Below are positions 16,767 through 31,882 of a stretch of 64,000 bases of DNA, in pieces (the first letter of the stretch is position 1; the number at the start of each line of letters is the position of its first letter). The stretch is from Myxococcota bacterium (GTDB lineage Bacteria; Myxococcota_A; UBA9042; PHBI01; JAWLBL01). The DNA lies in assembly GCA_041687695.1 (NCBI GenBank), contig JAWLBL010000007.1, positions 160,001 through 224,000 on the forward strand. The letters run 5' to 3'. The notes below the pieces were generated by a model. That model made no database searches, had not been told where the DNA came from, and worked only from the letters and a program-made list of their open reading frames with translations. Made by a program: the position numbers and the translations under genes.

Positions 16767-17264
16767 ATGCATCCACTCATCGCGCAGTATCGCGACGCCG
16801 TCGCCGCGCCCCAGGTCTCCGCCGAGGCGCAGCTGGAGACGCTGCGGACGCGCGACCGGCTGGCGCGGCTCGAGGAGGGCTTGAGCGCCGATGAGCGGGT
16901 GGCCCTGGCGGAGGCCGACGTCGCGCTGGTGAGGGCGGCCCGGACGGTGGTGGCGCGGCTCGAGGGGCTGGCGCCTCTGTCGCGGCTGCGCCCCGAGGGG
17001 GTCGAGCCCCGGCGCTGGTGGTGGTGGCTGGACGTCGTGGCGCACACGCCGCTGGCGGCCGTCGAGTCGGGCCGCGCGCCCGCCCGACCCCCGCGGGGCA
17101 GGCGCGCGTCGGGCCCCGGCGAGGTGCGTCCTTCGCCGCGGTACTTCTCGATCGAGCGCTCGTTCCACGTGGGGGCCACGGGCGAACGGCGGCCGCGGCG
17201 GTGGCGCATCAGGGATGCGCGGAGCCGGTCGCCGGGGGCTCCGGGGGCGCCTCGTCGAGGGTGA
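16767..17264 (+). CDS. Hypothetical protein with a WWWWLD motif
   Basis: ATG 16767 six nt after TACAGT; helical N-terminal ~95 aa with typical codon use; low-complexity tail overlaps the convergent antiporter gene by 56 bp. Confidence 0.6.
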   Translation: MHPLIAQYRDAVAAPQVSAEAQLETLRTRDRLARLEEGLSADERVALAEADVALVRAARTVVARLEGLAPLSRLRPEGVEPRRWWWWLDVVAHTPLAAVESGRAPARPPRGRRASGPGEVRPSPRYFSIERSFHVGATGERRPRRWRIRDARSRSPGAPGAPRRG

Positions 17265-19005
17265 CCTCCGGCTCGGAGGGCGGGTCCGGAGGCCTCGGCA
17301 GAAGGCGCAGGCGCTTGACGCGGCCGTCGCGCAGCTCGGTGACCTCGAGGGTGTAGCGCGGGGTCTGTAGGCGCGTCCCGACGTCCAGCGGGGCGTCGGA
17401 CAGGGCGTGGCGCAGCCAGCCGTCGAGGGTGTCCTCGCACGAGGGGGGCAGCTCCGGGCACAGGTCGAGGCCGTACAGCTCGGCGAGGTCCGAGAGGATC
17501 GCGCCGCCCTGGAGCTCGACGCCGTGCTCGGGGACGCCGGGGGTGCCGCGGCCCGAGAAGAGGCGGTCGACCAGCGGGCGGAGCTCGGGTCGGACGACGA
17601 CGAAGAGGTGGTCGTCGGCCTGAAGGCGCGTGCTGCCGCGCGGCGGGATGAGCCGCTGGCCGCGGGTGACGAGCGCGACGAGGGCCCCGTCGGGGAGGTT
17701 GAGGTCGCGCACGGCGCGGCCGACGAGGCGGGTGTTCGGGTCGACGCCGTAGTCGATGATGTCGCCCTCGACGTGCTTGAGCGACGAGATCTCGAGCGAG
17801 ATGGGTGGGGCGACGCGCTTGGGGCCGAGCAGGCGCAGCTTGCGGGCCAGCCAGCCCAGGGTCGAGCCCTGCAGGATGGCCGAGACGAGGACGACGAAGA
17901 AGATGATGTCGAACAGGCGGTGGCCGCCGGGCAGGCCGAGCAGCAGCGGGAAGGTGGCCAGCAGGACGGGGACGGCGCCCTTGAGGCCAGCCCAGGAGAT
18001 GAAGACGAGCTCGCGGGCCGAAAAACCGAAGGGGGCGGTCAGGCCGAAGACGGCGAGCGGGCGGGCGAGCAGGATGAGGCCGGCGGCGACCAGCAGGCCC
18101 TCGGGGGCGGCGTCCATGAGGCGCGAGGGGAAGCTGAGCAGGCCGAGCACGACGAACATGGCGATCTGGCCGAGCCAGGCCATGCCGTCGTGGAAGAGGA
18201 AGATGCCGCGGCGGAAGACGAGGGTGGGGCTGTTGCCGACGACGATGCCGGCCAGGTAGATGGCGAGGAAGCCGCTGCCGCCGAGGGCCGCGGCGAGGCC
18301 GAAGGCGAACAGGCCGGTGGCGGCCGTCAGGACGGGGTAGAGGCCGGCGGAGTCGAGGCTGATGCGGTTGATGAGCAGGGTCGCGCCCTTGCCGACCGCG
18401 AGGCCGACGGCGGTGCCGACGCCCATCTGCATGAAGAAGAGCCCGAGCAGGCCGACGCCGAGGTCGGATTGGCCGAGCAGGACCTCGATGAGCCCGATGG
18501 TGAGGAAGATGGCCATCGGATCGTTGGACCCGCTCTCGACCTCGAGCGTGCGGGTCAGGCGCTCGTCCAGGTTCATCCCCTGGCCGCGGAGGACGGCGAA
18601 GACGGCCGCGGCGTCCGTGGAGCCGACGATGGCGCCGAGCAGGAGGCCCTCGAGGACCGGGAGGCCGAGCAGCCAGGCGGCGAGCAGGCCGGTGGCGAGC
18701 GTCGTGACGAGCACGCCGACCGTCGCGAGCAGGGCCGCGGGCCTCCAGACGAGGCGGAAGGCCGAGTAGCTGGTCCCGAGGCCACCGTCGAAGAGGATGA
18801 TGGCGAGGCCGACGGTGCCGACGGCGTGGGCGAGCGCGTAGTTCTCGAACTCGATGCCGCCGACGCCCTCGGAGCCGGCGAGCATCCCGACGCCGATGAA
18901 CAGGACCAGCACGGGCATGCCGAGCCGGGACGCGAAGCGGCTGAAGGCGATCGCGAACAGGGTCAGGACGCTGGCGAGCAGGATGAGGTTGTCGATGAGG
19001 AACAA
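17209..19005 (-). CDS. cvrA: K+/H+ antiporter (NhaP2/CvrA family, CPA1) with RCK-C and C-terminal CorC-like domains
   Basis: ILFDGGL, STDAAAVF, LEVESGSNDPMA, SWAGLKGAVP; many TM helices; IPPRGSTRLQADD. Confidence 0.88.
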   Translation of the reverse strand: MFLIDNLILLASVLTLFAIAFSRFASRLGMPVLVLFIGVGMLAGSEGVGGIEFENYALAHAVGTVGLAIILFDGGLGTSYSAFRLVWRPAALLATVGVLVTTLATGLLAAWLLGLPVLEGLLLGAIVGSTDAAAVFAVLRGQGMNLDERLTRTLEVESGSNDPMAIFLTIGLIEVLLGQSDLGVGLLGLFFMQMGVGTAVGLAVGKGATLLINRISLDSAGLYPVLTAATGLFAFGLAAALGGSGFLAIYLAGIVVGNSPTLVFRRGIFLFHDGMAWLGQIAMFVVLGLLSFPSRLMDAAPEGLLVAAGLILLARPLAVFGLTAPFGFSARELVFISWAGLKGAVPVLLATFPLLLGLPGGHRLFDIIFFVVLVSAILQGSTLGWLARKLRLLGPKRVAPPISLEISSLKHVEGDIIDYGVDPNTRLVGRAVRDLNLPDGALVALVTRGQRLIPPRGSTRLQADDHLFVVVRPELRPLVDRLFSGRGTPGVPEHGVELQGGAILSDLAELYGLDLCPELPPSCEDTLDGWLRHALSDAPLDVGTRLQTPRYTLEVTELRDGRVKRLRLLPRPPDPPSEPEVTLDEAPPEPPATGSAHP

Positions 19006-19097: not shown

Positions 19098-20816
19098 CTA
19101 GCATGAAACGCTGGCGCGGGGCGTGGGCTCGGAGCGGCCGGGGACGAGGGGCTCGAAGAGGAGGGCGAGGCCAATGACGCCGGCGCAGCCGATGACGTTG
19201 AACCAGAGATAGCCGATGTCGGTCGTGGCGTAGAGCGCGAGCACGCTCGCCTGGGAGGCGACGGCGGCGAGGAAGACGGCGTGGCCGCGGACGTGCTTGA
19301 TGAAGAAGGCGACCAGGAACAGGCCGAGCACGGTGCCGTAGAAGAGCGAGCCCAGGATGTTGACGGCCTGGATGAGGTTGTCGAGGAGGCTCGCGAAGCT
19401 GGCGAAGGCGAGGGCGACCAGGCCCCAGAACACGGTGAAGAGCTTGGAGGCGACGAGGATGTGGCGGTCGGAGGCGTCGCGGCGGAAGACGCGGCGGTAG
19501 AAGTCGCTGGTGGTGGTGGCGCCGAGGGCGTTGAGCTCGCTGGCGGTCGAGCTCATGGCGGCCGAGAGGATGACGGCGATGAGCAGGCCGACGAGGCCGG
19601 CGGGGAGCCAGTCGGTCACGAAGGAGATGAAGATGTAGTCGGAGTCCTTGGTCTCGGCCCCGGGGATGGCCTTGGCGATGACGCCCTTGGCCTGGGCGCG
19701 CAGGGCGTCGGTCTGGCCGGCGGAGGCGACGAGCGCGGCGCGGGCGGTCTCGAGGGCGGCCTCGTCGCCGGTCTGTCGCGCGGCGAGGAAGGCGTCGACG
19801 TGGGCGCGCTTCTGGGTCTGCGCGGCGTCCCAGGCCGACTCGAGGGCGGTCAGCTCGCCGGCGTGGGCGGTCTGGTGGACGCGGTCGACCAGCGGCTGGT
19901 TGAAGACCATCGGGGGCGTCGTGAACTGGTAGAAGACGAAGACCAGGACCCCGATGAGCAGGATGACGAACTGCATCGGGATCTTCAGGACGCCGTTGAA
20001 GAGCAGGCCGAGGCGGCTCTCGGTGATGGAGCGGCCCGTGAGGTAGCGGCCGACCTGGGACTGGTCGGTGCCGAAGTAGGACAGGGCGAGGAAGAGGCCG
20101 CCGGTGATGCCCGACCAGAAGTTGTAGCGGTCGTCGAGGTCGAACTCGAAGTTGACCACGTTCATGCGGCCGAGGGCGCCGGCGACGTCCAGGGCGCCGC
20201 CGAAGGAGACGTGGTCGGGCAGGTGGAAGACGATGACGAAGGCGGCGACGACCATGCCGCCCATCATGACGACCATCTGCTGCTTCTGGGTCTGGGCGAC
20301 GGCCCTGGAGCCGCCCGTCACCGTGTAGAGGATGACGATGACGCCGATGGCGAAGATGGTCGGCTCGAGGGGCCAGCCGAGGACGGCCGACAGGATGATG
20401 GCGGGCGCGTAGATGGTGATGCCGGCGGCGAGCCCGCGCTGGATGAGGAACAGGAACGCCCCGAGCAGGCGGGTCTTCATGTCGAAGCGGCTCTCGAGGT
20501 ACTCGTAGGCCGTCGTGACGCGCAGGCGGTAGTAGATGGGGACGATGAAGGCGCTGATGATGACCATCGCGATGGGCAGCCCGAAGTAGAACTGCACGAA
20601 GCGCATGCCGTCTTCGTAGGCCTGCCCCGGGACCGACAGGAAGGTGATGGCGCTGGCCTGCGTCGCCATGACCGACAGGCCGATGGTCGTCCACGGCAGG
20701 TCGTAGTTGCCGCGCAGGTAGCTCTCGGCGGTCGCGGCGCCGCGCGTCTTCCAGATGCCCAGCGCGACGATGGTCGCGATGGTGCCGACGAGGACGGTCC
20801 AGTCGAGCCCGGTCAC
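19098..20816 (-). CDS. Sodium:solute symporter (SSS family)
   Basis: SVMATQASAITFLSVPGQ, TAYEYLESRF, YFGTDQSQVGRYL, AAMSS..SELNAL; many TM helices. Confidence 0.9.
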   Translation of the reverse strand: MTGLDWTVLVGTIATIVALGIWKTRGAATAESYLRGNYDLPWTTIGLSVMATQASAITFLSVPGQAYEDGMRFVQFYFGLPIAMVIISAFIVPIYYRLRVTTAYEYLESRFDMKTRLLGAFLFLIQRGLAAGITIYAPAIILSAVLGWPLEPTIFAIGVIVILYTVTGGSRAVAQTQKQQMVVMMGGMVVAAFVIVFHLPDHVSFGGALDVAGALGRMNVVNFEFDLDDRYNFWSGITGGLFLALSYFGTDQSQVGRYLTGRSITESRLGLLFNGVLKIPMQFVILLIGVLVFVFYQFTTPPMVFNQPLVDRVHQTAHAGELTALESAWDAAQTQKRAHVDAFLAARQTGDEAALETARAALVASAGQTDALRAQAKGVIAKAIPGAETKDSDYIFISFVTDWLPAGLVGLLIAVILSAAMSSTASELNALGATTTSDFYRRVFRRDASDRHILVASKLFTVFWGLVALAFASFASLLDNLIQAVNILGSLFYGTVLGLFLVAFFIKHVRGHAVFLAAVASQASVLALYATTDIGYLWFNVIGCAGVIGLALLFEPLVPGRSEPTPRASVSC

Positions 20817-20977
20817 GAATAGGCCTCGGTCATCAGCCAGAACAGGACGACCAGGGCGGCGAGCGTGCCGAGGACGACCAGGTAGATGTTGCGCCAGCTG
20901 CCGAGCAGCGGCGGGGCGTCCTCGAGCTCGGGGCGGGGCTCGGGCGGCGGGGCGTCGGGCTGGGGCAGCGTGCTCAT
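20813..20977 (-). CDS. 54-aa single-TM protein, likely small SSS partner
   Basis: MSTLPQPDAPP...PPLLGSWRNIYLVVLGTLAALVVLFWLMTEAYS; ATGA overlap with the upstream stop and GTGA overlap with the SSS start. Confidence 0.75.
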   Translation of the reverse strand: MSTLPQPDAPPPEPRPELEDAPPLLGSWRNIYLVVLGTLAALVVLFWLMTEAYS

Positions 20978-23478
20978 TGGCTCAGCAGGTTGGCGAGGAG
21001 GCGGTAGGCCCCCGGGACGCCGGCGGGGAGCTGCCTGAAGAACGACAGCCCGGTGTAGACGAAGGTGCCCTTGCCGTGGCGCGCGACGAGCAGGGCGCCG
21101 CGCGACGGCTCGTCCCCCGCGTCCTGCAGCTCGAACACGGGCCGGTACCGCGCATCCCAGGTGGTCGCGAAGTACAGGCCGCGCTCCTGCACCCAGCCGT
21201 CGAAGTCCGCCGGGCCCAGCGCGTTGGGACCGGCGAGCAGCCCGTCCTTGGGATCCACGGGCGTCATGGCGGCGGCCTCGTCGGTCACGCGGTCGCGTCC
21301 GATCTCGATGGGCCAGGGCCCGAGCGGCGCCTTCAGCGGAGCGATGTGGTTGTTGGTCATGTACTGCACGACCAGGCGTCCGCCCTGCTCGACGTACTTC
21401 ATCAGGCGCTCGTGGTGCGAGGCGAGGCGCGGGTTGGTGTTGTAGGCGCGGACGCCCACCAGGATGGCGTCGAAGCGCTCGAGCGGCTCCTTGGCGAGGC
21501 GCTCGTCGGGCAGCAGCGTGACCTCGAAGCCGACCGCGGCGAGGTCCTCGGCGACCGTGTCGCCCGGGCCCGGGATGTAGCCGATGCGGCGGCTGCGCGT
21601 CTCGAGCTGCAAGGGCACCAGATCCGCCTGCGCCGCCTTGCGGACCGTCAGCGGCGGGATGTGGTCGTAGGCGATGCCACGCATGGCCCAGGAGTCCTTG
21701 CGGCCGTTCAGCTCGACCACGGCGCGCACCGACGCCCGCTCGGAGGCCCCCTTGGGGGGCGTCACGCGGAAGGCGACGCTCGCCTCCGCGCCCTTGCTGG
21801 CCAGCTCGAAGGGGCGCTCGGCCGGCTCGGCGCGCCATCCGTCGGGCAGCTCGAGCCGGACGACCCCCTCCGCCGCGTCGCGGCCGGCCGCCAGCGTGAC
21901 GCTGACGTCGCGCGTCTGTCCGTTCGGGAACATCACCACCGGGCGGTCCAGGTTGGCCGTGACGGCCGGGACGATCTCGAGGTCGCGGTACAGCTCGCCG
22001 CGCACCGGGTCGACCCAGGCGTACACGACCGGACGCGTCGTCACGAAGCGCTCGCCGCCCACCTCCCAGGTGAAGGCGACGGCCAGCGCCGGATCGCCCG
22101 ACGGCCGGCCGACCAGCGCGCGATCGGCCACCGAGAACAGGCCGCCCTGCTGCGGGTCCCTCAGCCAGTAAGGCGTCGAGACCGGCGCCTCGGCCGGCAC
22201 CGCGACGGTCGGGCTCTGCCCCACCGGCACGTTGTGGCCCAGCGCGGCGTTCACCTCGAGCACGTCGCCGCCGGGAAGGGTGACGCTGACGAGGCGGAGC
22301 GCGGCCGGCGAGCGGTTCAGGGCCGACACGCGCAGCTGCACGGACCCGCCAGGGACGGCCGCCGGCTCGGCCGCGCGCGCCTCGAGGTGCAGGCCCGCGC
22401 ACGCCGCGATGAGGGCCTCGGTGTCGGCCAGCTTGGACGCCTTGAACGGGTTGTCGTCCGGCAGCGCCCTCAGCGCGGCGCGCACCTTCAGCAGCGCCGG
22501 GATGCTGGCGTGCGGCGCTTTGGCGTCGAAGCCGTCCCAGGCGGCCTTGGTCGCCTTCGCCACGGCGGCGGCGGCGCGCGCGTGCTTCGGCTCGCCCTTG
22601 GCGAAGCGTCCCCACGACAGGTCCAGGCCCTCGAAAGGCTCGGCCTTGGGGCGGGTCCCCGCGACGGGCGAGAAGTACTCGTGGCTGGTGCCGCGCTGCG
22701 CGGCGACGCCGAAGCCCTGGCTCTTGTGCTGGCTGCGGCTGTCGGCGGCGATCTCGCCCCACGAGCGGCCGACCAGCGGGTCGTAGCCCCCGACGTCCAC
22801 CTTCAGGTAGCCCGACATGTCGGCGTCGGGCCCCAGGCGCCAGGTCGAAACGTTGTACAGCAGGCGATCGACCTTCCAGGTTCCGTACCGGGCCACCTGC
22901 TCGGGGAAGCGGCTAGGATCGGCGGCGGCCTCGAAGGCCTCGCGCGCCAGGATGGCCGACGCCGTGTGGTGGCCGTGGTTGGGCGGGCGCTCGTTGAAGC
23001 GCGTCAGGATGACGTCCGGCTTGAAGCGGCGGATCGCCAGGACCACGTCCTCGAGCACGGCCTCGTGGCCCCAGATCTGCAGCGACTCCTGCGCGCTCTT
23101 GGAGTAGCCGAAGTCGCGCGCCCGCGTGAACAGCTGCTCGGCCCCGTCGATGCGGCGCGCGGCGAGCAGCTCGTGCGTGCGGATGAGCCCCAGCAGCTCG
23201 CTCTGCTCGGTCCCGATGAGGTTCTGGCCGCCGTCGCCCCGCGTCAGCGAGAGGTATCCAGCGCGCACCCGTTTTTCGCCCACCAGCCACGCGAGCAGCC
23301 GCGTGTTCTCGTCGTCCGGGTGCGCCGCCACGTACAGGACGTTGCCGACCACGCCCAGCTTGCGCAGCCCCTGGGCGATTTCGCCCGCGTGCATCGGGCG
23401 CTGGGCCTGCGCGGAGGCCGGCGAGGCGGTGGCGATCATGATGGAGAGAGCCAATCCAAGCAGGGTCGTCGTTCGCAT
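20974..23478 (-). CDS. Secreted PIG-L/LmbE family deacetylase/amidase with Ig-like and C-terminal GATase-like domains
   Basis: Signal peptide MRTTTLLGLALS..AQA; AAHPDDE, TRGDGGQN, HGHH motifs; 834 aa. Confidence 0.85.
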   Translation of the reverse strand: MRTTTLLGLALSIMIATASPASAQAQRPMHAGEIAQGLRKLGVVGNVLYVAAHPDDENTRLLAWLVGEKRVRAGYLSLTRGDGGQNLIGTEQSELLGLIRTHELLAARRIDGAEQLFTRARDFGYSKSAQESLQIWGHEAVLEDVVLAIRRFKPDVILTRFNERPPNHGHHTASAILAREAFEAAADPSRFPEQVARYGTWKVDRLLYNVSTWRLGPDADMSGYLKVDVGGYDPLVGRSWGEIAADSRSQHKSQGFGVAAQRGTSHEYFSPVAGTRPKAEPFEGLDLSWGRFAKGEPKHARAAAAVAKATKAAWDGFDAKAPHASIPALLKVRAALRALPDDNPFKASKLADTEALIAACAGLHLEARAAEPAAVPGGSVQLRVSALNRSPAALRLVSVTLPGGDVLEVNAALGHNVPVGQSPTVAVPAEAPVSTPYWLRDPQQGGLFSVADRALVGRPSGDPALAVAFTWEVGGERFVTTRPVVYAWVDPVRGELYRDLEIVPAVTANLDRPVVMFPNGQTRDVSVTLAAGRDAAEGVVRLELPDGWRAEPAERPFELASKGAEASVAFRVTPPKGASERASVRAVVELNGRKDSWAMRGIAYDHIPPLTVRKAAQADLVPLQLETRSRRIGYIPGPGDTVAEDLAAVGFEVTLLPDERLAKEPLERFDAILVGVRAYNTNPRLASHHERLMKYVEQGGRLVVQYMTNNHIAPLKAPLGPWPIEIGRDRVTDEAAAMTPVDPKDGLLAGPNALGPADFDGWVQERGLYFATTWDARYRPVFELQDAGDEPSRGALLVARHGKGTFVYTGLSFFRQLPAGVPGAYRLLANLLSQ

Positions 23479-23669
23479 CGGGGCGGACCTTAACAGAACG
23501 ATTGGGCAGGTGGGACCTTTGGCGCACCCCTCGGTGGAGGGCCGCCGGACCCCCACCAACGCGCGGTCCCTCCCGCGGGTTCACCGGGACCGGGTTTTCC
23601 GTGGTCGTGTCCTGAGGCCTTCACCCAACGTGGACCCGCCCCTTCGCTTACTGCTATGAGTCCGCGGCG

Positions 23670-25295
23670 ATGGCCACCTCCTTCGCTGCCTCCTGGCTCT
23701 CGGGCGCTCCCAACGCCCACGCCTTCCTCCCCGACCGCTACCGCCACCCGGACGCCCGCGCCGCCGCCGCGGCCGCCGCCGCCCAGCGCGCGCCCGACCC
23801 CGCGCTCGTCGCCGCGCTGGTCCGCCAGAACGCCGCGCTGCCACCCAGCCCGGCCCGCGACCGCCACCTCGACGACCTCGCCCGCCCCGGCACCATCGCC
23901 GTCGCCACCGGCCAGCAGGTCGGCCTCTTCCTCGGCCCGCTCTTCACCGTCTACAAGGCCGCCGCCGCGATCGCCGCCGCCCGCGCCCTCTCCCGCGAGA
24001 CCGGCCGCCCCTGCGTCCCCGTCTTCTGGCTGCAGACCGAGGACCACGACCGCCCCGAGATCGACCACGTCCTCGTCCCCCGCGCCACCGGCGCCCCGCT
24101 GCGCCTCGCGCTGCCCCCCGACGACCTCGACCCGCGCGTCCCCGTCGCCCACCGCCGCCTCGGCCCCGGGGTCCAGGCCGCCCTCGACACCCTCGACGCC
24201 GAGCTGGGCCACGAGCCCCACGCCCGCGCGCTGCTCGACCTTCTCTCCGCCGCCTACACCCCCGACGCCACCTTCCACGACGCCTTCGCGCGCACCCTCG
24301 CCGCCGTCTTCGCCGACGACGGCCTCGTCTTCCTGAACCCCCGCGACCCGGCCATCGCCCGCCTCGCCGCCCCGCTGCACCGCCGCGCCCTGCTCGAGGC
24401 CGGCCCGCTCTCCCAAGCCCTCGCCCAGCGCGCCCGCGCCCTGACCGACGCCGGCTTCGCCGCCCAGGTCCACATCCGCCCCGGCGCCCCGCTGGCCTTC
24501 TTCTCCCCCGACGCCGTCGACGGCCCCCGCTACCGCCTCGACCCGACCGCCACCCCCGACCGCTGGGCGCTCGTCGGCCACCCCGCCGACGCCACCGTCA
24601 CCACCGCCACCCTGCTCGACGCCCTCGACGCCGATCCCCTCCGCCTGACCACCTCGGCCCTGCTGCGCCCCCTCCTGCAGGACACCCTCCTGCCCACCGC
24701 CGGCTACGTCGGCGGCCCCGGCGAGATGGCCTACTTCGCCCAGCTCGGCCCGCTCTACGACGCCCTCGATCTCCCGATGCCGCTGACCATCCCGCGCGCC
24801 CGCTTCCGCGTCGTCGACGACCGCGCCCGCGGCCTGCTGGCCAAGCTCGACCTCACCCCGGCCGACCTCGCCCAGCCCCGCGAGGCCCTGCTGACCCGCC
24901 TCGCCGCCCGCGCCGCCGACGACGGCTTCGACCCGCCGGACGCCGTCCACGACCGCCTGCTCGCAGCCCTCGCCCCCGAGCTCGCCCGCCTCGGCGCCCT
25001 GATGACCGCCCTCGACCCCAACCTGGCCAAGGCCGTCTCCCGCACCGAGGACGGCGTGCGCGACGCGCTCTCCAAGCTGGTCGCCAAGTACGGCCGCGCC
25101 CTCGGCCAGCGCGATCACGTCGCCCTCGAGCGCCTCGACCGCGCCCGCGCCTTCCTCCACCCCGACGACGCCCCTCAAGAGCGCGTCCTGGGCCTGCCCT
25201 ACTTCGCCGCCCGCCTCGGGACGAAAACCTTCGCCCGGCTCGTTGTCGACGCCTGCGTCCCCTTCTCCGGCGAGCTGCGAGACCTCACCCCGTGA
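23670..25295 (+). CDS. bshC: Bacillithiol biosynthesis cysteine-adding enzyme BshC
   Basis: [56 protein letters not shown]. Confidence 0.9.
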
Positions 25296-26095
25296 CCGTC
25301 ACCCCCGCCTACGGCTTCGACCTGGTCGCGTTCGGGCCCCACCCGGACGACGTCGAGCTGTTCTGCGGCGGGCTGCTCATCCGCCTGAGCGATCTCGGCT
25401 ACCGCGTGGCCGTGGTCGACCTCACGCGTGGCGAGATGGCCACCCGCGGCACGCCCGAGACCCGCGCCGCCGAGGCCGAGGCCGCCGCTGCCGTCCTGGG
25501 CCTGTCGCACCGCGAGAACCTGGCGCTGCCCGACGCCGGCCTGCTGCCGAACGACCCCGACCAGGTCGCCGCCATCGTCGCCGCCCTCCGCCGCCTCCGC
25601 CCCGAGCTGGTCGTCGCCCCCTGGTCGCGCGAGCGCCACCCCGACCACGAGGCCGCCAGCGCCCTGGTCACCCGCGCCGTCTTCCTGGCCGGCCTGCGCC
25701 GCTGGTCCCCCGGACGCCCACGGGATCCCGGCGCCCTGGACGCGCCGCCCTTCACGCCGCGGCAGGTCCTGTACTACCCGATGCGCCACCTGGCCGAGCC
25801 CACCTTCATCGTGGACACCACCGAGGCCGCCGAACGCAAGCTCGCCGCCATCCGCTGCTACGCGAGCCAGGTCGGCCCCGCCCCCGGCGCCCCCGAGACC
25901 CTCGTCGGCTCGCCCCTGTCGCTCACCTCCATCGACGCGCGCGACCGCTTCTACGGCGCCCAGATCGGCGTCGCCCACGGCGAGCCCTTCGTCTCGCCCA
26001 GCCCCGTCGGCCTCGTCGACCCCGTCGCCCACTTCCGGGCCAACGCCCCCGCGCCGGCCGGCGCTCGCCCCCTCCTGTTCCCCGAGCGCCGATGA
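25292..26095 (+). CDS. bshB1: GlcNAc-malate deacetylase BshB1
   Basis: [33 protein letters not shown] overlap with bshC. Confidence 0.88.
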
Positions 26096-27285
26096 CCCCT
26101 CCGCCGCTGCCCCCGCTGCCGCCCGGGCGCCTCAACATCGCCATCACCTGCTTCCCCACCTTCGGCGGCAGCGGCATCGTCGCGACCGAGATCGGCCTCG
26201 CCATGGCCAGCCGCGGCCACCGCGTCCACTTCGTCGCGCGCGACCTCCCGGTGCGCCTCGGCCGCTGCGTGCCCAACGTCCTGTTCCACGAGGTCTCCGA
26301 GAGCGACTACCCCGCGCTCCACCACAGCGGCACCTACGCCATCGCCCTGGCCAGCAAGCTGGTCGAGGTGGCCGGCTACGAGCCCCTCGACGTCCTGCAC
26401 GTCCACTACGCGGTCCCCCACGCCACCGCCGCCTGGATGGCCTCCGAGGTCCTCGGCCCCGCCAGCCCCGCCATCGTCACCACGTTGCACGGCACCGACA
26501 TCACCCTGGTCGGCGCCGACCCCGGCTACCTGCCCATCACCCGCCTGTCCATCCTCAAGAGCCACGCCGTCACGGCCCCCTCCGAGTTCCTGCGCGCCGC
26601 GACCCACGAGCGCCTGCACATCGACCCGCTGTTCCCCATCGACGTCATCCCCAACTTCGTCGACACCGCCCGCTACGCCCCCGACCGCGCCGACCGCGCC
26701 CGCCTCGACGCCCTCTTCCCCGCCGCGCCGTCGTCCGACCCGGTCCTCTTCCACGTCTCCAACTTCCGCCCCGTCAAGCGGGTGTGCGACGTGCTCCGCA
26801 TCTTCCAGCGCCTGCACGAGCAGCACCCCAGCCGCCTGGTCCTCATCGGCGACGGGCCCGAGCGCTCGCCCGCCGAGCGCCGCATCCGCGAGCTCGGTTT
26901 GGCCGACCGCGTGGCCTTTCTGGGCAAGCAGGACACCTTCGCCCCCTTGCTCGCCGCCTCGGACGCCTTCCTGCTGCCCAGCGAGACCGAGTCCTTCGGC
27001 CTCGCGGCCCTCGAGGCCCTGTCCTGCGGCGTCCCGGTGATCGCCAGCGACGTGGGCGGCCTGCCCGAGGTCGTCGACCACGGCCAGACCGGCTACCTCG
27101 CGCCGGTCGGGGACGTCGCGGCCTTCGCCGGGTACACGCTGGACCTGTTGACCCGACCCGATCGCCGCGCCACCTTCGGGGCGCTCGCCCGCGCGCGTGT
27201 GCTCGAGCGCTACCAGCTCGACCCCGCCATCGACCGGTACGAGCGCCTCTACCGGCGCGTCACCGCAGGCCGCCGCGCCCCCTGA
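26092..27285 (+). CDS. bshA: N-acetyl-alpha-D-glucosaminyl L-malate synthase BshA (GT4)
   Basis: TCFPTFGGSGIVATE, HVHYAVPHA, TTLHGTDITLVG, HVSNFRPVKR, ESFGLAALEA; ATGA overlap with bshB1. Confidence 0.92.
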   Translation: MTPPPLPPLPPGRLNIAITCFPTFGGSGIVATEIGLAMASRGHRVHFVARDLPVRLGRCVPNVLFHEVSESDYPALHHSGTYAIALASKLVEVAGYEPLDVLHVHYAVPHATAAWMASEVLGPASPAIVTTLHGTDITLVGADPGYLPITRLSILKSHAVTAPSEFLRAATHERLHIDPLFPIDVIPNFVDTARYAPDRADRARLDALFPAAPSSDPVLFHVSNFRPVKRVCDVLRIFQRLHEQHPSRLVLIGDGPERSPAERRIRELGLADRVAFLGKQDTFAPLLAASDAFLLPSETESFGLAALEALSCGVPVIASDVGGLPEVVDHGQTGYLAPVGDVAAFAGYTLDLLTRPDRRATFGALARARVLERYQLDPAIDRYERLYRRVTAGRRAP

Positions 27286-27309: not shown

Positions 27310-28902
27310 GTGAACCTACCCAAGCCCGGGGCGGCGCGCGCGTGCGCCTTCGTCCTGCTCGCGACTTCCGCTCTGCTCGCTGCGTGCGGCTCCGACGGCC
27401 CCGGCGCGCCCACCTCCGACGCCCCAGGCTCGGACGCCGACACCTCCGCGCCCGACCCGGACGTCCCCGACAGCGCGGACGACGCGGCGGACGCGACCGA
27501 CGCGACCGACGCCGCCGAGGTCGACGACGGCGACGCGATCGGCTGGACCTCCGGCGACTTCGACGCCGACCTGTGCGCCCCGCTCGCCGCGCTGGCTTGC
27601 GCCCAGTCGGTGCCCTGCGCGTGCCCGCAGGCCCCCGAAGCCGACTTCGACGAGGCGGCGTGCCGGCTCGACTACACGGCGCGATGCCTCGAAGACGTGG
27701 CCGTCCTGGCCGGACACGTCGCCTCGGGGGCGCTGCTGTTCGACGGCGCCGCCGCGCAGGACTGCGTGGCCGAGGTGGCCGCCGGGCTCGGACCCTGCGA
27801 GCCGCCGAGCCTGTGGATGGGCGGCGTCGCCTGCGGGCGCATGCTCTCGACCCCGACGCCGGTCGGCCAGCCGTGCCAGGGGCCGGTCTGCGCCAGCTTC
27901 GCGGGCGAGTGCTTCGAGGGCACCTGCCGCCCGCTGCCGAACGCCGGGCAGGCCTGTCAGGGCGCGTGCGCGGGCGGGGCCCTGTGCCTGGGCGGCGTCT
28001 GCGGTGACCGGGTCGGGCAGGGCGGCGCGTGCCAGGCGGACGGGCAGTGTCAGCCCCCGCTCCGATGCCTCGCGGGCAGCTGCGAGCCGCTCGGGGGCCC
28101 CAGCGCGGCCTGCCAGGAAGACGCCCAGTGCGCCTCGGGTCACCGCTGCGAGGGCGGCGCTTGCGTCCGGGTCACCACCGCCGACTGCTCGAGCGACGCC
28201 GTCTGCGGCAACGCCGGCGTGTGCGTCGGCCAGGCCGGGCGCACGTGCGACCCGCTGGCCGCCGAGGGCGAGGCCTGCGAGTACGCCGAGCACTGCGATC
28301 CGGCGCTGTGGTGCGTGCCCGACAGCAAGACCTGCGCGCCCCGTCCCGGCCAGGACGAGGCCTGCGCGGACGGTGTGTACTGCGCGCCGGGCCTGGGCTG
28401 CGCCGAGCTGGACCACACCTGCCAGCCGCTGCCGGGCGACGGCGAGATGTGCGCCTTCGGCCCCGGCGGACCGCTCTGCGCCGAGCCGCTGGCCTGCGTC
28501 GACGGGCAGTGCGCGCCGCTCCCCGGCCTGGACCAACCCTGCGCGATGGACAACCGCTGCGCCGCCCCCTACGGCTGCGACTTCACGCCCGAGGGCAGCG
28601 TCTGCAAGGCGCGCCGGCCCGCGGGTGGCGCCTGCGAGGCCGACTGGATCTGCGACGACGGCCTGTTCTGCGACCACACCCAGAGCCAGTGCGCGCCGCA
28701 CTACGCGACCGGCGCGGCGTGCAGCCAGGGCGGCGAGTGCGGCCCCGCCGGATCCTGCCTGCCGGACGGGCAGGGGGCCTTCGCCTGCGCGCCGCTGCCC
28801 GGCCTGGGGGACGGGTGCCTGTTCGACTGCGCCGAGGGCGCCTGCCGGTTGCACGTCGCCTGGTCGGCCTGCGCGCCGGCGGTCTGCGGTGCCATCGACT
28901 GA
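27310..28902 (+). CDS. Cysteine-rich lipoprotein
   Basis: Lipobox LLAAC, Asp-rich linker, repeated G..C....C...L.C....C modules; GGAG SD. Confidence 0.75.
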   Translation: MNLPKPGAARACAFVLLATSALLAACGSDGPGAPTSDAPGSDADTSAPDPDVPDSADDAADATDATDAAEVDDGDAIGWTSGDFDADLCAPLAALACAQSVPCACPQAPEADFDEAACRLDYTARCLEDVAVLAGHVASGALLFDGAAAQDCVAEVAAGLGPCEPPSLWMGGVACGRMLSTPTPVGQPCQGPVCASFAGECFEGTCRPLPNAGQACQGACAGGALCLGGVCGDRVGQGGACQADGQCQPPLRCLAGSCEPLGGPSAACQEDAQCASGHRCEGGACVRVTTADCSSDAVCGNAGVCVGQAGRTCDPLAAEGEACEYAEHCDPALWCVPDSKTCAPRPGQDEACADGVYCAPGLGCAELDHTCQPLPGDGEMCAFGPGGPLCAEPLACVDGQCAPLPGLDQPCAMDNRCAAPYGCDFTPEGSVCKARRPAGGACEADWICDDGLFCDHTQSQCAPHYATGAACSQGGECGPAGSCLPDGQGAFACAPLPGLGDGCLFDCAEGACRLHVAWSACAPAVCGAID

Positions 28903-28979: not shown

Positions 28980-29852
28980 CTACTTCTTGTTCTTCCAGTC
29001 GGCCAGGGCCTTCTCGACCTGCGCCTTGTAGAAGAAGTACGAGTCCTTCTGGCCCAGGTCCCAGGCGACCTGGGCGAACTTGCGGGCGTCCTTGTACTTG
29101 CCCTGGCGCGCCAGGATGTCGGCCTTGATCCAGTTGTTGAACCAGGTCGACTTGATGGCGATCGACTGCTCGGCGTACTTGAGCGCGGTCGGCAGATCGC
29201 CCGCCGTGTCGGCCATGTAGCGGGCGGCCGCCAGGTGGTTGCGCCAGGCGTTGTTCAGGGCGGCGTCGATGTTCGCCTTGGCCTGCTCGGAGGTCTGGGC
29301 GAGCACCGGGACCGAGACCTTGAGGGTGGCCCACTCGAGGTCCAGCGTCGTGGCGTCGTCGGTCGTGTTCGAGAACAGGAAGGTCAGGCGCTCGCGGGCG
29401 GGGATCTCGGTCGCCGTGACCTCGACGCGGGCGGCGTCATCCTTGGGGTCGTACTGCTTGCCGCCCGAGTACAGGTCGGTGGCCTTCGAGAGGATGACCG
29501 TCCAGGTCTTCTGGCCGGGGATCGAGACGATCGCGTAGGTGCCGGCCGGGACGGGCTTGCCGCCGAAGGTCACGTCCTTGCTGAAGGTGATCTTGGTGGA
29601 CGCGTTCGCGCCGGTGCGCCAGGGCTTGTCCCAGGGGACGAGGCCGCCAAAGATGGCGCGGCCTTTGACGCCCGGGCTCGAGTACTCGACCGTGACGTCG
29701 GTCAGGCCGACGCGCTGCTTGACCATCGCCGGCGGGCTGGCGGCGGGGAGCTCGAGCTGCTGGGCCGCCGCGGGCACGGCCGCGAGCAGGCAGAGGGCCC
29801 CGAGGGCGCTGCGGAGGGCTACCTTGTTCATCTTCGGCACGTCCTTGGACAC
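28980..29852 (-). CDS. DUF2911-like secreted protein with C-terminal TPR
   Basis: Signal peptide; SPPA.VKQRVGLTDVTVEYSSP..KGR.IFG.LVP....WRTGAN; start could be ATG 29831. Confidence 0.8.
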   Translation of the reverse strand: MSKDVPKMNKVALRSALGALCLLAAVPAAAQQLELPAASPPAMVKQRVGLTDVTVEYSSPGVKGRAIFGGLVPWDKPWRTGANASTKITFSKDVTFGGKPVPAGTYAIVSIPGQKTWTVILSKATDLYSGGKQYDPKDDAARVEVTATEIPARERLTFLFSNTTDDATTLDLEWATLKVSVPVLAQTSEQAKANIDAALNNAWRNHLAAARYMADTAGDLPTALKYAEQSIAIKSTWFNNWIKADILARQGKYKDARKFAQVAWDLGQKDSYFFYKAQVEKALADWKNKK

Positions 29853-29922: not shown

Positions 29923-30993
29923 TCACACACCAGCGAGCCGCACCGGGGTCCGCTTGGCCCCCCACGCCCCCGGAGGCCCGTCGAAGACGCCCGCGAGCGC
30001 CTCGCCGCAGCCCTGGCACCGCCCGGCGGCGTCCAGTCGCCAGCGCTCGAGCTCGTACCAGTCGCGCTGGATGACCACCTCGCCGCACCCGTGGCACAGG
30101 GTCGCGTCGCCTTCGGGATCGTGCACGTTCCCCGTGTAGACGTGCCGGAGGCCGGCCTCGCGGGCGACGCGTCGCGCGCGCTGCACGGTCGCCAGGGACG
30201 TCGCCGGAACCTCGCGCATCCGGAAGTCCGGGTGGAAGGCGCTCAGGTGCAGCGGCACGTCCGGGCCCATGTGCTCGGCCAACCACCCGGCGAGCTGGGC
30301 CACCTCGGCGTCCGAGTCGTTGAGCCCCGGGATGAGCAGGGTGGTGACCTCGACCCAGACGTGCGTCTCGCGGGCCAGGTACTCCAGCGTCTCCAGCACC
30401 GGCCCCAGCTTCGCGAAGCAGATCCTTTCGTAGAACCCCTCGGTGAACGCCTTGAGGTCCACGTTGGCGGCGTCCATCGCCCCGAAGAAGTCCGCCCGCG
30501 CCGCCTCGCCGATGTACCCGGCCGTGACCGCGACCGTCTTGATCCCTCGCGCGCGGCAGGCCGCCGCCGTGTCGATGGCGTACTCCGCCCAGATGACGGG
30601 ATCGTTATAAGTAAAGGCGACGCTCCGGCAGCCCAGCCGGCCCGCGGCGGCCGCGATGGCCTCCGGGGTGGCCGCGTCGCTCATCCGCTCGACCTCGCGA
30701 GACTTCGAGGTCTCCCAGTTCTGGCAGAACTTGCACCCCAGGTTGCAGCCGGCCGTGCCAAAGGACAGCACCGGCGTGCCCGGCAGGAAGTGGTTGAGCG
30801 GCTTCTTCTCGATGGGGTCGACGCAGAAGCCCGTGCTGCGGCCCCAGGTGGTCAGGACCAGGCCGTCGCCCTCGCGGGCGCGCACGAAGCAGAAGGCGCG
30901 CTGCCCGTCGTGCAGGCGGCAGTGGCGCGGACACAGGTCGCACTGGATGCGTCCGTCGTCCAACGCGTGCCAGTATCGGGCTGGATGGTTCAT
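29923..30993 (-). CDS. amrS: AmmeMemoRadiSam system radical SAM enzyme
   Basis: CDLCPRHC, DPIEKKPLNHF.PG, GCNLGCKFCQNW, FTYNDP, NVDLKAF, YTGNV. Confidence 0.88.
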   Translation of the reverse strand: MNHPARYWHALDDGRIQCDLCPRHCRLHDGQRAFCFVRAREGDGLVLTTWGRSTGFCVDPIEKKPLNHFLPGTPVLSFGTAGCNLGCKFCQNWETSKSREVERMSDAATPEAIAAAAGRLGCRSVAFTYNDPVIWAEYAIDTAAACRARGIKTVAVTAGYIGEAARADFFGAMDAANVDLKAFTEGFYERICFAKLGPVLETLEYLARETHVWVEVTTLLIPGLNDSDAEVAQLAGWLAEHMGPDVPLHLSAFHPDFRMREVPATSLATVQRARRVAREAGLRHVYTGNVHDPEGDATLCHGCGEVVIQRDWYELERWRLDAAGRCQGCGEALAGVFDGPPGAWGAKRTPVRLAGV

Positions 30994-31030
30994 GCGTGAC
31001 CCCGTAGGCTCCCGGGTCGGGAGCGAGGCC

Positions 31031-31882
31031 ATGAAGACAAGCACCATGCGTCGTGAGACCACCCCCCAGCGACCGCAGCGTGCCACCACCGACGCGCCGC
31101 CCTGGGACGCCTTCCATCCCCGCTGGCTCGGGCCGCACCCTCAGGCGGGCGACGCGGGCGTCGTCGTGGTCCACGGCTTCACGGGCTCCGTGTGGGACGT
31201 GCTGCCCCAGGCCGAGGCCCTGGCCGACGCCGGCCATCCGGTCGTGGTCCCCTGCCTGCACGGCCACGACCGCGGCCCCGGCGGCATCCAGGGCGCGCGC
31301 CTGCACGACTGGCGCCGCGACGTCCGCGCGCCCGCCGAGGCGCTCTACGAGGCGACCGGCCGCCCCATCCTGGTCGTCGGCCTGTCCATGGGCAGCCTGC
31401 TCGCCATCGATCTGGCCCTGTCCGGCGCCGTCCCCATCGCCGGCCTGGCCCTGCTGGCTTCGCCGCTGGCCATCGGCCGCCTCTCCAGCGCCGTCGCCGC
31501 CCTGTCGGTCTCGCCCCGCACCCCCTGGGCCGCGTCCGTCCACTGGCCCAAGCTCGGCGGCTCCGACATCTCGAACCGCGCCCCGACCCCCGGCGCCCGC
31601 GCGACGCCCCTGCGCGCCGCCCACGAGCTGTTCCAGCTGCGCGACCACGTCCGCGCCGGCCTCGGCCGCCTGACCGTGCCCCTGCTCGTCGTCCACGGCC
31701 GCCAGGACCACACGGCGCCGGTCGCCGGCGCCTACGAGCTGGCCCACGCCGCCGTCGCCGCCCCGTCGCTGCGCCTCGTCGTGCTCGACGAGGGCTGGCA
31801 CGTCATCACCCGCGACGTCAGCGCCGCCCGCGTCACCCTCGAGGTGCTCGCCTTCGCCGCCCGCGTGGCCCCGGCCCGCTGA
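31031..31882 (+). CDS. Carboxylesterase / monoacylglycerol lipase-like hydrolase
   Basis: VHGFTGS, GLSMGS, HGRQDH, GWHVIT. Confidence 0.8.
   Translation: MKTSTMRRETTPQRPQRATTDAPPWDAFHPRWLGPHPQAGDAGVVVVHGFTGSVWDVLPQAEALADAGHPVVVPCLHGHDRGPGGIQGARLHDWRRDVRAPAEALYEATGRPILVVGLSMGSLLAIDLALSGAVPIAGLALLASPLAIGRLSSAVAALSVSPRTPWAASVHWPKLGGSDISNRAPTPGARATPLRAAHELFQLRDHVRAGLGRLTVPLLVVHGRQDHTAPVAGAYELAHAAVAAPSLRLVVLDEGWHVITRDVSAARVTLEVLAFAARVAPAR

Follow-up and report, generated by a model that had tools for sequence, protein, structure and literature searches.

A bacillithiol gene cassette with a predicted exported PIG-L enzyme and a sodium:solute symporter in Myxococcota: a candidate system for periplasmic deacylation and reimport

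RESULTS

The locus

We examined a 64,000-nucleotide stretch of a Myxococcota genome (contig JAWLBL010000007.1, positions 160,001 to 224,000; hereafter the window), in which the genes for synthesis of the thiol bacillithiol (BSH) stand back to back with genes for a predicted exported hydrolase of the PIG-L/LmbE family and a sodium:solute symporter (SSS). The initial annotation had described bshC, bshB1 and bshA as coupled on the plus strand, with a divergent operon for the PIG-L protein, a small peptide and the symporter 191 bp away, and all six genes were found at those places. A fourth envelope gene, encoding a DUF2911 protein, lies past bshA and a Cys-rich open reading frame (ORF), outside the region which that annotation covered. 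Positions below are those of the window; lengths are in amino acids (aa), GlcNAc is N-acetylglucosamine, and GlcN is glucosamine.

23670..25295, plus strand: BshC, the cysteine-adding enzyme of BSH synthesis (TIGR03998, 442.6 bits against a cutoff of 265.8; PF10079 and PF24850)
25292..26095, plus strand: BshB1, cytoplasmic GlcNAc-malate deacetylase (TIGR04001, 273.6 bits against a cutoff of 182.5)
26092..27285, plus strand: BshA, GlcNAc-malate synthase (TIGR03999, 489.2 bits against a cutoff of 273.7)
23479..23669, no strand: divergent intergenic region of 191 bp between the bshC and PIG-L starts
20974..23478, minus strand: PIG-L/LmbE zinc amidohydrolase of 834 aa, predicted to be exported (PF02585 and PF10633)
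20813..20977, minus strand: 54-aa peptide with a single transmembrane segment and a PPLLGxW motif, as read from its translation
19098..20816, minus strand: sodium:solute symporter (SSS/SLC5), 572 aa (PF00474, 131.9 against 22.8 bits; TIGR00813, 224.7 against 184)
28980..29831, minus strand: DUF2911 protein of 283 aa, predicted to be exported, with a beta domain and a tetratricopeptide repeat (TPR) part (PF11138, E value of 2e-50)

BshA, BshB1 and BshC all exceeded the cutoffs of their NCBIfam equivalog models. The junctions between bshC, bshB1 and bshA are 4-nucleotide overlaps (GTGA or ATGA), and the genes of the PIG-L/peptide/SSS operon are likewise joined by 4-nucleotide overlaps. No sigma-70 consensus was matched within the 191-bp divergent gap; the DUF2911 gene has a sigma-70-like promoter of its own at 29904-29877. 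The closest named homologues are myxobacterial (Archangium, Stigmatella and Myxococcus, 65 to 69% identity). We rejected an upstream TTG start for the PIG-L protein (861 aa), since the N-termini of its homologues fit the ATG at 23478, and we also rejected an island of foreign composition, GC content at third codon positions being 0.95 to 0.99 throughout. The locus is likely a seven-gene bacillithiol cassette made up of bshC, bshB1, bshA and the genes for the PIG-L protein, peptide, symporter and DUF2911 protein.

Co-occurrence and linkage within the phylum

Among 301 genomes of the phylum with a completeness of at least 90%, a set that overlaps the 61 closer relatives treated below, 36 encode the long PIG-L protein, 35 have a BshC match (a fragment in one case, matched at 6e-4) and 34 have both. 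These PIG-L and BshC scans scored three or four candidates per genome, and weak copies could be missed. DUF2911 was present in 34 of the 301 genomes, all of them PIG-L positive. Across the 61 closer relatives, PIG-L was found in 27, BshC in 26 and the symporter in 26 (all PIG-L positive), and the sets were identical bar one fragmented genome each. The two phylum genomes with PIG-L and no bshC match were G002, which is in 280 contigs, and G150.

PIG-L and bshC lay on one contig in 31 of the 34 genomes that had both; they were no more than 1 kb apart in 20 genomes and no more than 7 kb apart in 30, and their order varied between divergent and tandem. The cassette was kept even where it was split, with the symporter on another contig in three genomes (G021, G040 and G056) and bshC 20 kb off in G040. 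Clustering of the ORFs of 50 cassette loci yielded no further recurrent gene. As a control, the glutathione synthetase GshB was off the profile: it was found in 43 of the 61 relatives, over the cutoff in 26 of the 27 module-positive genomes (e.g., G000:C27:54459-55373) and in 17 of the 34 module-negative ones. BSH is therefore probably a second thiol in the module genomes, which appear to encode two thiol systems. The counts are inflated by kinship and physical linkage, and we give no P value. The linkage of PIG-L to the bsh genes is more than chance adjacency, and the tie to BSH proposed by the initial annotation holds within the phylum: with 2 of 36 PIG-L genomes lacking bshC and 30 of 34 pairs within 7 kb, the trio is neither common without the bsh genes nor rarely adjacent to them.

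Repeated loss of bshB1

For TIGR04001, a match over the cutoff was found in 32 of the 46 genomes with a long PIG-L protein, a weak match only in one more, and no match in 13. Correspondingly, bshA is the immediate neighbor of bshC in 9 of the 40 regions retrieved and in 6 of the 78 metagenome loci described below. A quick tree was built from 45 BshC rows, 15 of them without bshB1; on it, the presence of bshB1 requires 10 changes, at least five of which are forced by branches with a support of 95 or more. When the labels are shuffled, about 6% of runs arrive at 10 changes, and the bshB1 label is barely clustered. These results suggest that bshB1 is dispensable in many related cassettes.

We searched nine of the bshB1-less genomes with PF02585. 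The protein of the cassette was the sole match in five (G021, G035, G040, G056 and G148), all of which have BshA and BshC over the cutoff and keep a signal-like N-terminus on the PIG-L protein. In view of this repeated loss, the putatively exported enzyme may serve as a biosynthetic deacetylase and not in recycling alone. On the simplest reading, the enzyme and the importer can together deliver GlcN-malate, starting either with GlcNAc-malate made by the cell itself or with BSH from outside; a cytoplasmic deacetylase outside the PIG-L family may also act in genomes without bshB1.

The PIG-L enzyme

Signal peptides of the PIG-L and DUF2911 proteins were read by eye, without a predictor, and signal-like N-termini are present on essentially all of the SSS-type PIG-L homologues listed. 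Behind its signal peptide the 834-aa protein carries a PIG-L domain (about residues 42 to 290; PF02585, 55.4 against a cutoff of 28.2 bits), a helical linker, two Ig-like/NEW3 domains (about 363 to 624) and a GATase1/ThuA-like domain (630 to 834). Its AlphaFold (AF2) model, built from 79 sequences, has a pLDDT of 89.4 and a pTM of 0.88, with low confidence at the N-terminus. The PIG-L domain has a Rossmann-like fold that is best matched by LnmX (Z score of 20.4, rmsd of 2.9 over 203 aligned residues) and MshB (Z score of 19.6), and MshB is also the top Foldseek match. The C-terminal domain has the fold of class I glutamine amidotransferases and ThuA-like proteins (Z score of 16.6 to 2GK3); an active glutamine amidotransferase was rejected, the sole Cys of the protein being residue 360, outside this domain.

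The motifs AHPDDE and HGHH, read earlier in this protein, are indeed there (as AAHPDDE and HGHH). They belong to an HXDD+H zinc motif, H53-P-D55-D56 and H171, with a spacer of about 115 residues, which is invariant in the homologue alignment; the family motif has a spacer of 97 to 148 residues (PMC4101496). The same source names Arg68, Asp95 and His144 (MshB numbering) as conserved substrate-binding side chains of the family, and their counterparts are present as R100, D122 and H168. It further states that all LmbE/PIG-L family substrates share an N-acyl-glucosamine core (PMC4101496). The protein fell below the BshB1 model (TIGR04001, 22.5 against 182.5 bits) and the Mca model (TIGR03446, 37.7 against 277 bits) and did not match the BshB2 model TIGR04000 at an E value of 0.01. 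A single-sequence search of the PDB gave no match, and a profile search returned small PIG-L proteins only. Judged by these comparisons, the 834-aa protein is a PIG-L member and is orthologous to no studied enzyme. The long PIG-L family comprises 3,298 clusters at 50% identity, at E values up to 1e-30. We also observed that the long PIG-L match comes in two pieces in G040 (C62:58364-60535), G148 (C100:11402-13657) and G008; in G040 and G148 the break lies just ahead of the C-terminal GATase-like domain and may be a natural split or a sequencing error.

The symporter, the 54-aa peptide and DUF2911

The best solved relatives of the symporter are the anion carriers SMCT1, NIS and SMVT, along with 5NV9 (E values of 1e-46 to 1e-43), and the sugar-carrying SGLT structures are weaker (1e-28 or worse). 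This nearness to anion-carrying SLC5 structures is a weak hint that the solute may be carboxylated, and we infer that the symporter would import GlcN-malate. The 54-aa peptide has no Pfam or NCBIfam match, and its homologues sit between PIG-L and the symporter in most relatives. Of 85 loci with the symporter directly downstream, 69 have a small hydrophobic ORF with an ATG start, some of these being other small ORFs. By analogy with known carriers discussed below, the peptide is likely an accessory subunit of the symporter. The model of the DUF2911 protein has a pLDDT of 95. A fold match was returned for the TPR part alone; the lists were filled by it, none was returned for the beta domain, and we claim no sign of a new fold. 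In the open-access full-text literature, DUF2911 was found in a single paper (PMC4666044).

Plasmid homologues and an ArgH-like lyase

A search of plasmids yielded 22 records with a long PIG-L homologue, 21 of them alphaproteobacterial and one from Bacillus, from 11 genera. The Aminobacter homologue aligns over residues 34 to 832 at 30% identity and has 59 near-invariant positions in common with the SSS-type proteins, and active-site residues are kept in both branches. A signal peptide is present on the Bacillus homologue and missing from the alphaproteobacterial ones that we looked at.

A lyase gene labeled argH lies within about 6 kb of the long PIG-L gene in all 22 records. We opened six of these loci, on plasmids of Aminobacter, Thalassospira, Bacillus F19, Loktanella, Qingshengfaniella and Parasedimentitalea (L109-L112, L119 and L120), and each holds a ROK regulator, an ABC importer, the ArgH-like lyase and a sugar kinase; the Loktanella locus adds a true nagB. 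Fifteen further records carried the lyase, and eight of them were opened. Those of Roseomonas (L115) and Paroceanicella (L180) have ROK, ABC, lyase, kinase and glucosamine-6-phosphate deaminase genes and no PIG-L, and those of Bosea, Shinella and Terrarubrum (L113, L114 and L118) have an ABC and lyase operon without a long PIG-L; such operons would suit the uptake of already deacylated GlcN-malate. A Deinococcus wulumuqiensis plasmid (L116:6983-16584) encodes ROK, the ArgH-like lyase, a sugar ABC importer, a kinase and two PIG-L proteins, one of 707 aa with a related catalytic domain and a different C-terminus and one small and MshB-like. A GH9 gene lies close to one of the lyase clusters.

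The lyases carry the SSIMPQKRNP signature and the Lyase_1 and ASL_C2 domains. They score 277 to 352 bits on TIGR00838, where housekeeping ArgH proteins score 546 to 576 and four of the five lyases pass the cutoff of 279.5. Members of the argininosuccinate lyase superfamily eliminate fumarate from X-succinyl compounds, and by analogy such an elimination would fit an O-malyl glycoside. Among the metabolites known to us, a substrate that needs N-deacylation of its glucosamine, fumarate elimination, phosphorylation and NagB would be GlcNAc-malate or bacillithiol. We know of no BSH in alphaproteobacteria, and this clue to the substrate is independent of adjacency to the bsh genes. The ArgH-like plasmid protein is probably a paralogue that has diverged from ArgH, and it is a candidate for the lyase that splits GlcN-malate. 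A second ArgH-like hit was found in none of the 46 SSS-type module genomes, which had at most one, at housekeeping-level identity; none would be expected in producers that reuse GlcN-malate and do not destroy it.

Metagenome loci outside the phylum

We also examined 78 metagenome loci, drawn from the best 80 of 700 confirmed and from 3 of the 64 parts of the collection. The symporter lies within 2.5 kb downstream of the long PIG-L gene in 50 of them, and 8 of the 18 high-GC loci have bshC or bshA as a neighbor. The low-GC loci would mostly come from Bacteroidota, a reading based on the Bacteroidota and Acidobacteriota clusters in the Atlas. The full BSH pathway is recorded in 2,111 Bacteroidota species in a recent distribution survey (PMC12719100), and unlinked co-occurrence there is therefore plausible. 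A weak BshB1-like match lies 10 kb away in one of the low-GC loci. Recurrent neighbors in the metagenome loci included DUF2911 (21 loci), gamma-glutamyl transpeptidase (GGT, 11) and a DinB-like DUF1572 protein (7). As side observations, the stretch upstream of the long PIG-L gene repeatedly encodes GGT, an M14 carboxypeptidase or DinB-like DUF1572 in low-GC loci (L033, L036, L046, L052, L058, L062, L063, L077 and others), and some low-GC loci have a second small hydrophobic ORF ahead of the symporter gene.

Other genes around the cassette

One further feature lies within the cassette's span:

27310..28902, plus strand: Cys-rich lipoprotein-like ORF of 530 aa with 60 Cys, between bshA and the DUF2911 gene

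It has Dickkopf_N/DUF7107-like repeats and was rejected as a cassette member, not being recurrent among the 50 cassette loci. A K+/H+ antiporter gene (17209-19005, minus strand) directly follows the symporter gene and was rejected likewise, as it does not recur in related cassette loci. Beyond the DUF2911 gene lies an AmmeMemoRadiSam radical SAM gene (29923-31089, minus strand), which also does not recur with the cassette.

DISCUSSION

A proposed deacylate-and-reimport loop

We propose that the exported zinc hydrolase would remove the N-acyl group outside the cytoplasm, either the acetyl group from GlcNAc-malate or the cysteinyl group from BSH or its S-conjugates. The symporter and the small membrane peptide would bring GlcN-malate back into the cytoplasm, where BshC would add cysteine to it again; efflux, leakage, lysed neighbors or prey are candidate sources of substrate in the periplasm. 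That the module is functionally tied to bacillithiol we regard as highly probable, and that a malyl-glucosamine is the substrate of the exported enzyme as likely. For the loop as a whole, we put the probability at about 60%. Of the options that the initial annotation had offered, scavenging of GlcNAc oligomers is the weakest.

A wider scheme can be offered only tentatively, and we would sooner bet against it than for it. In it, producers with an outer membrane would run a periplasmic deacylate-and-reimport loop able to replace BshB, altogether. In rhizobia and roseobacters, BSH or GlcNAc-malate would be taken up and would lose its acyl group to a cytoplasmic version of the same enzyme, and the GlcN-malate would be cleaved by the misannotated argH product, a glycoside C-O lyase that would release glucosamine and fumarate as food.

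Several points weigh against the loop and its extensions. Much of the co-occurrence comes from one physically linked cassette among kin. The idea that enzyme and importer process BSH-type molecules and return the product, put forward in the initial annotation, has profile and linkage support within the phylum; in the low-GC loci, neither bshA nor bshC was found within the fetched flanks of any of the 60 (27 of them at least 15 kb long). Within the phylum, G150 has a long PIG-L protein of 36% identity with no bsh, SSS or DUF2911 match; we observed that its gene stands alone after an acetoacetate-CoA ligase gene. No exporter gene is recurrent in the 50 cassette loci. The active-site comparison with BshB1 and Mca suggested earlier was favorable for the zinc site and for R100, D122 and H168, which are kept, and unfavorable elsewhere: the malate-contacting Arg109 of BshB, which precedes His110, is replaced by N167 here and by G or Q in homologues, and Tyr142 and Asp146 of MshB are not kept in the 834-aa protein. 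The five genomes in which the exported enzyme is the sole PIG-L protein are 92 to 95% complete and represent two genera of one family, and four other bshB1-less genomes (G006, G011, G020 and G022) hold other PIG-L proteins. Identity between the catabolic homologues and the SSS-type proteins is only about 30%, 9 of the 22 plasmid records are from Aminobacter, four of the five lyases scored from catabolic loci pass the argH cutoff, and more distant lyase paralogues stand in unrelated contexts in Haladaptatus and Bacillus N5-665. Finally, B. subtilis, T. thermophilus and D. radiodurans, BSH producers that served as controls, have no DUF2911; the module is therefore not needed for BSH.

Other explanations

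The alternative that survives best is that the exported enzyme is mainly biosynthetic, GlcNAc-malate routinely leaving the cytoplasm, losing its acetyl group in the periplasm and being taken back in, with BshB1 as a redundant backup. The presence of the enzyme in 34 of 34 clear bshC genomes of the phylum sample, the repeated loss of bshB1 and the five genomes in which no other PIG-L was found all speak for it. We nevertheless think it unlikely, given that BshB1 is over the cutoff in 32 of the 46 genomes, that the cassette has no exporter and the round trip costs energy, and that the large accessory domains and the catabolic homologues suggest a bulkier external substrate.

Also improbable, in our estimate, is a different extracytoplasmic role in BSH metabolism, in which modified envelope proteins or conjugates would have their BSH trimmed off by the enzyme, and intact BSH, GlcNAc-malate or a cysteine product would enter through the symporter. 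The same co-occurrence data suit this view; GshB in 26 of 27 module genomes would allow BSH to be a specialized extra thiol, the TPR domain of DUF2911 could bind proteins, and the module repeatedly has GGT (11 loci) or DinB-like DUF1572 (7 loci) next to it in the metagenome loci. However, these neighbors come from related loci and may reflect shared ancestry, and the import of a cysteine product leaves the loss of bshB1 unexplained.

We give little credence to the idea that the trio scavenges generic GlcNAc glycans or peptidoglycan fragments and lies near the bsh genes only through a common supply of amino sugars. PIG-L enzymes do include chitobiose deacetylases, Ig-like/NEW3 and GATase1-like domains are also found in glycosidases, the trio is unlinked to bsh in low-GC loci, and a GH9 gene lies near one lyase cluster. 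Yet the cassette has no recurrent glycosidase, TonB-dependent receptor, kinase or deaminase, the trio was not found in about 265 bshC-less genomes of the phylum, with two exceptions, and a fumarate lyase would have no place in the breakdown of chito-oligomers. That the two operons are unrelated and hitchhike on one transferred block is very improbable, for although the window BshC groups with Archangium and not with same-order relatives, and the PIG-L protein is 68% identical to that of Archangium against about 53% to same-order relatives, as block transfer would predict, the genes stay together through several orders and when split, with changing flanking genes, and the co-occurrence, linkage and locus data already largely refute it.

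Relation to known systems

The deacylate-and-reimport loop would share features with several studied systems. SSS carriers of the YjcH-ActP and MctB-MctC type have a small membrane partner, and here too a short single-transmembrane gene is translationally coupled just upstream of the symporter gene; the 54-aa peptide differs in having no family match, and the symporter is nearer to carriers of the SMCT, NIS and SMVT type. Glutathione is broken down in the periplasm by GGT and the pieces are reimported. The logic of the module would parallel this salvage, an extracytoplasmic hydrolase and an importer recovering a low-molecular-weight thiol, although the enzyme fold, the transporter class and the thiol are unrelated and the module is built from an unstudied enzyme family. 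Argininosuccinate and EDDS lyases share SSIMPQKRNP and the Lyase_1 and ASL_C2 domains with the plasmid lyases, which are not in the window; the plasmid lyases differ in standing in sugar ABC operons and in their proposed leaving group, a glycosyl oxygen.

BshB1 and MshB have equivalents of R68, D95 and H144 in the 834-aa protein, which may stand in where BshB1 has been lost; the difference is that this protein is predicted to be exported and that a true BshB1 is separately encoded at the locus. Bca/BshB2 and Mca share with it the PIG-L fold, the HXDD+H zinc site and the glucosamine-binding Arg, Asp and His, but they are small and cytoplasmic, whereas the 834-aa protein has a signal peptide, three extra domains and a coupled importer. 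The reaction that we propose is the same as theirs, freeing GlcN-malate for reuse (PMC4101496 and PMC5790435), and the single BshB of S. aureus, acting as both deacetylase and amidase, is a precedent for a dual role (PMC5790435).

Among the low-molecular-weight thiols of bacteria, bacillithiol may be the most broadly distributed (PMC6282198). In Myxococcota it is a genome-level prediction only, and the survey that makes this prediction has no mention of PIG-L or the symporter (PMC12719100). According to a 2018 review, neither import nor export of BSH had been established (PMC5790435). In the open-access literature, with subscription journals largely outside that scope, we found no description of the module, of a BSH importer, of an extracytoplasmic BSH enzyme or of BSH catabolism.

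The locus points to the symporter as a candidate importer, to the putatively exported PIG-L protein as a candidate amidase or deacetylase and, via homologues of the latter, to a candidate GlcN-malate lyase, and the question of BSH import and export becomes testable with existing substrates (GlcNAc-Mal, GlcN-Mal, BSH and BS-bimane). If the proposal is right, a set of genes now labeled argH would be reannotated, genomes with bshA and bshC and without bshB would not represent broken pathways, and the module would fill a known gap in bacillithiol transport and recycling.

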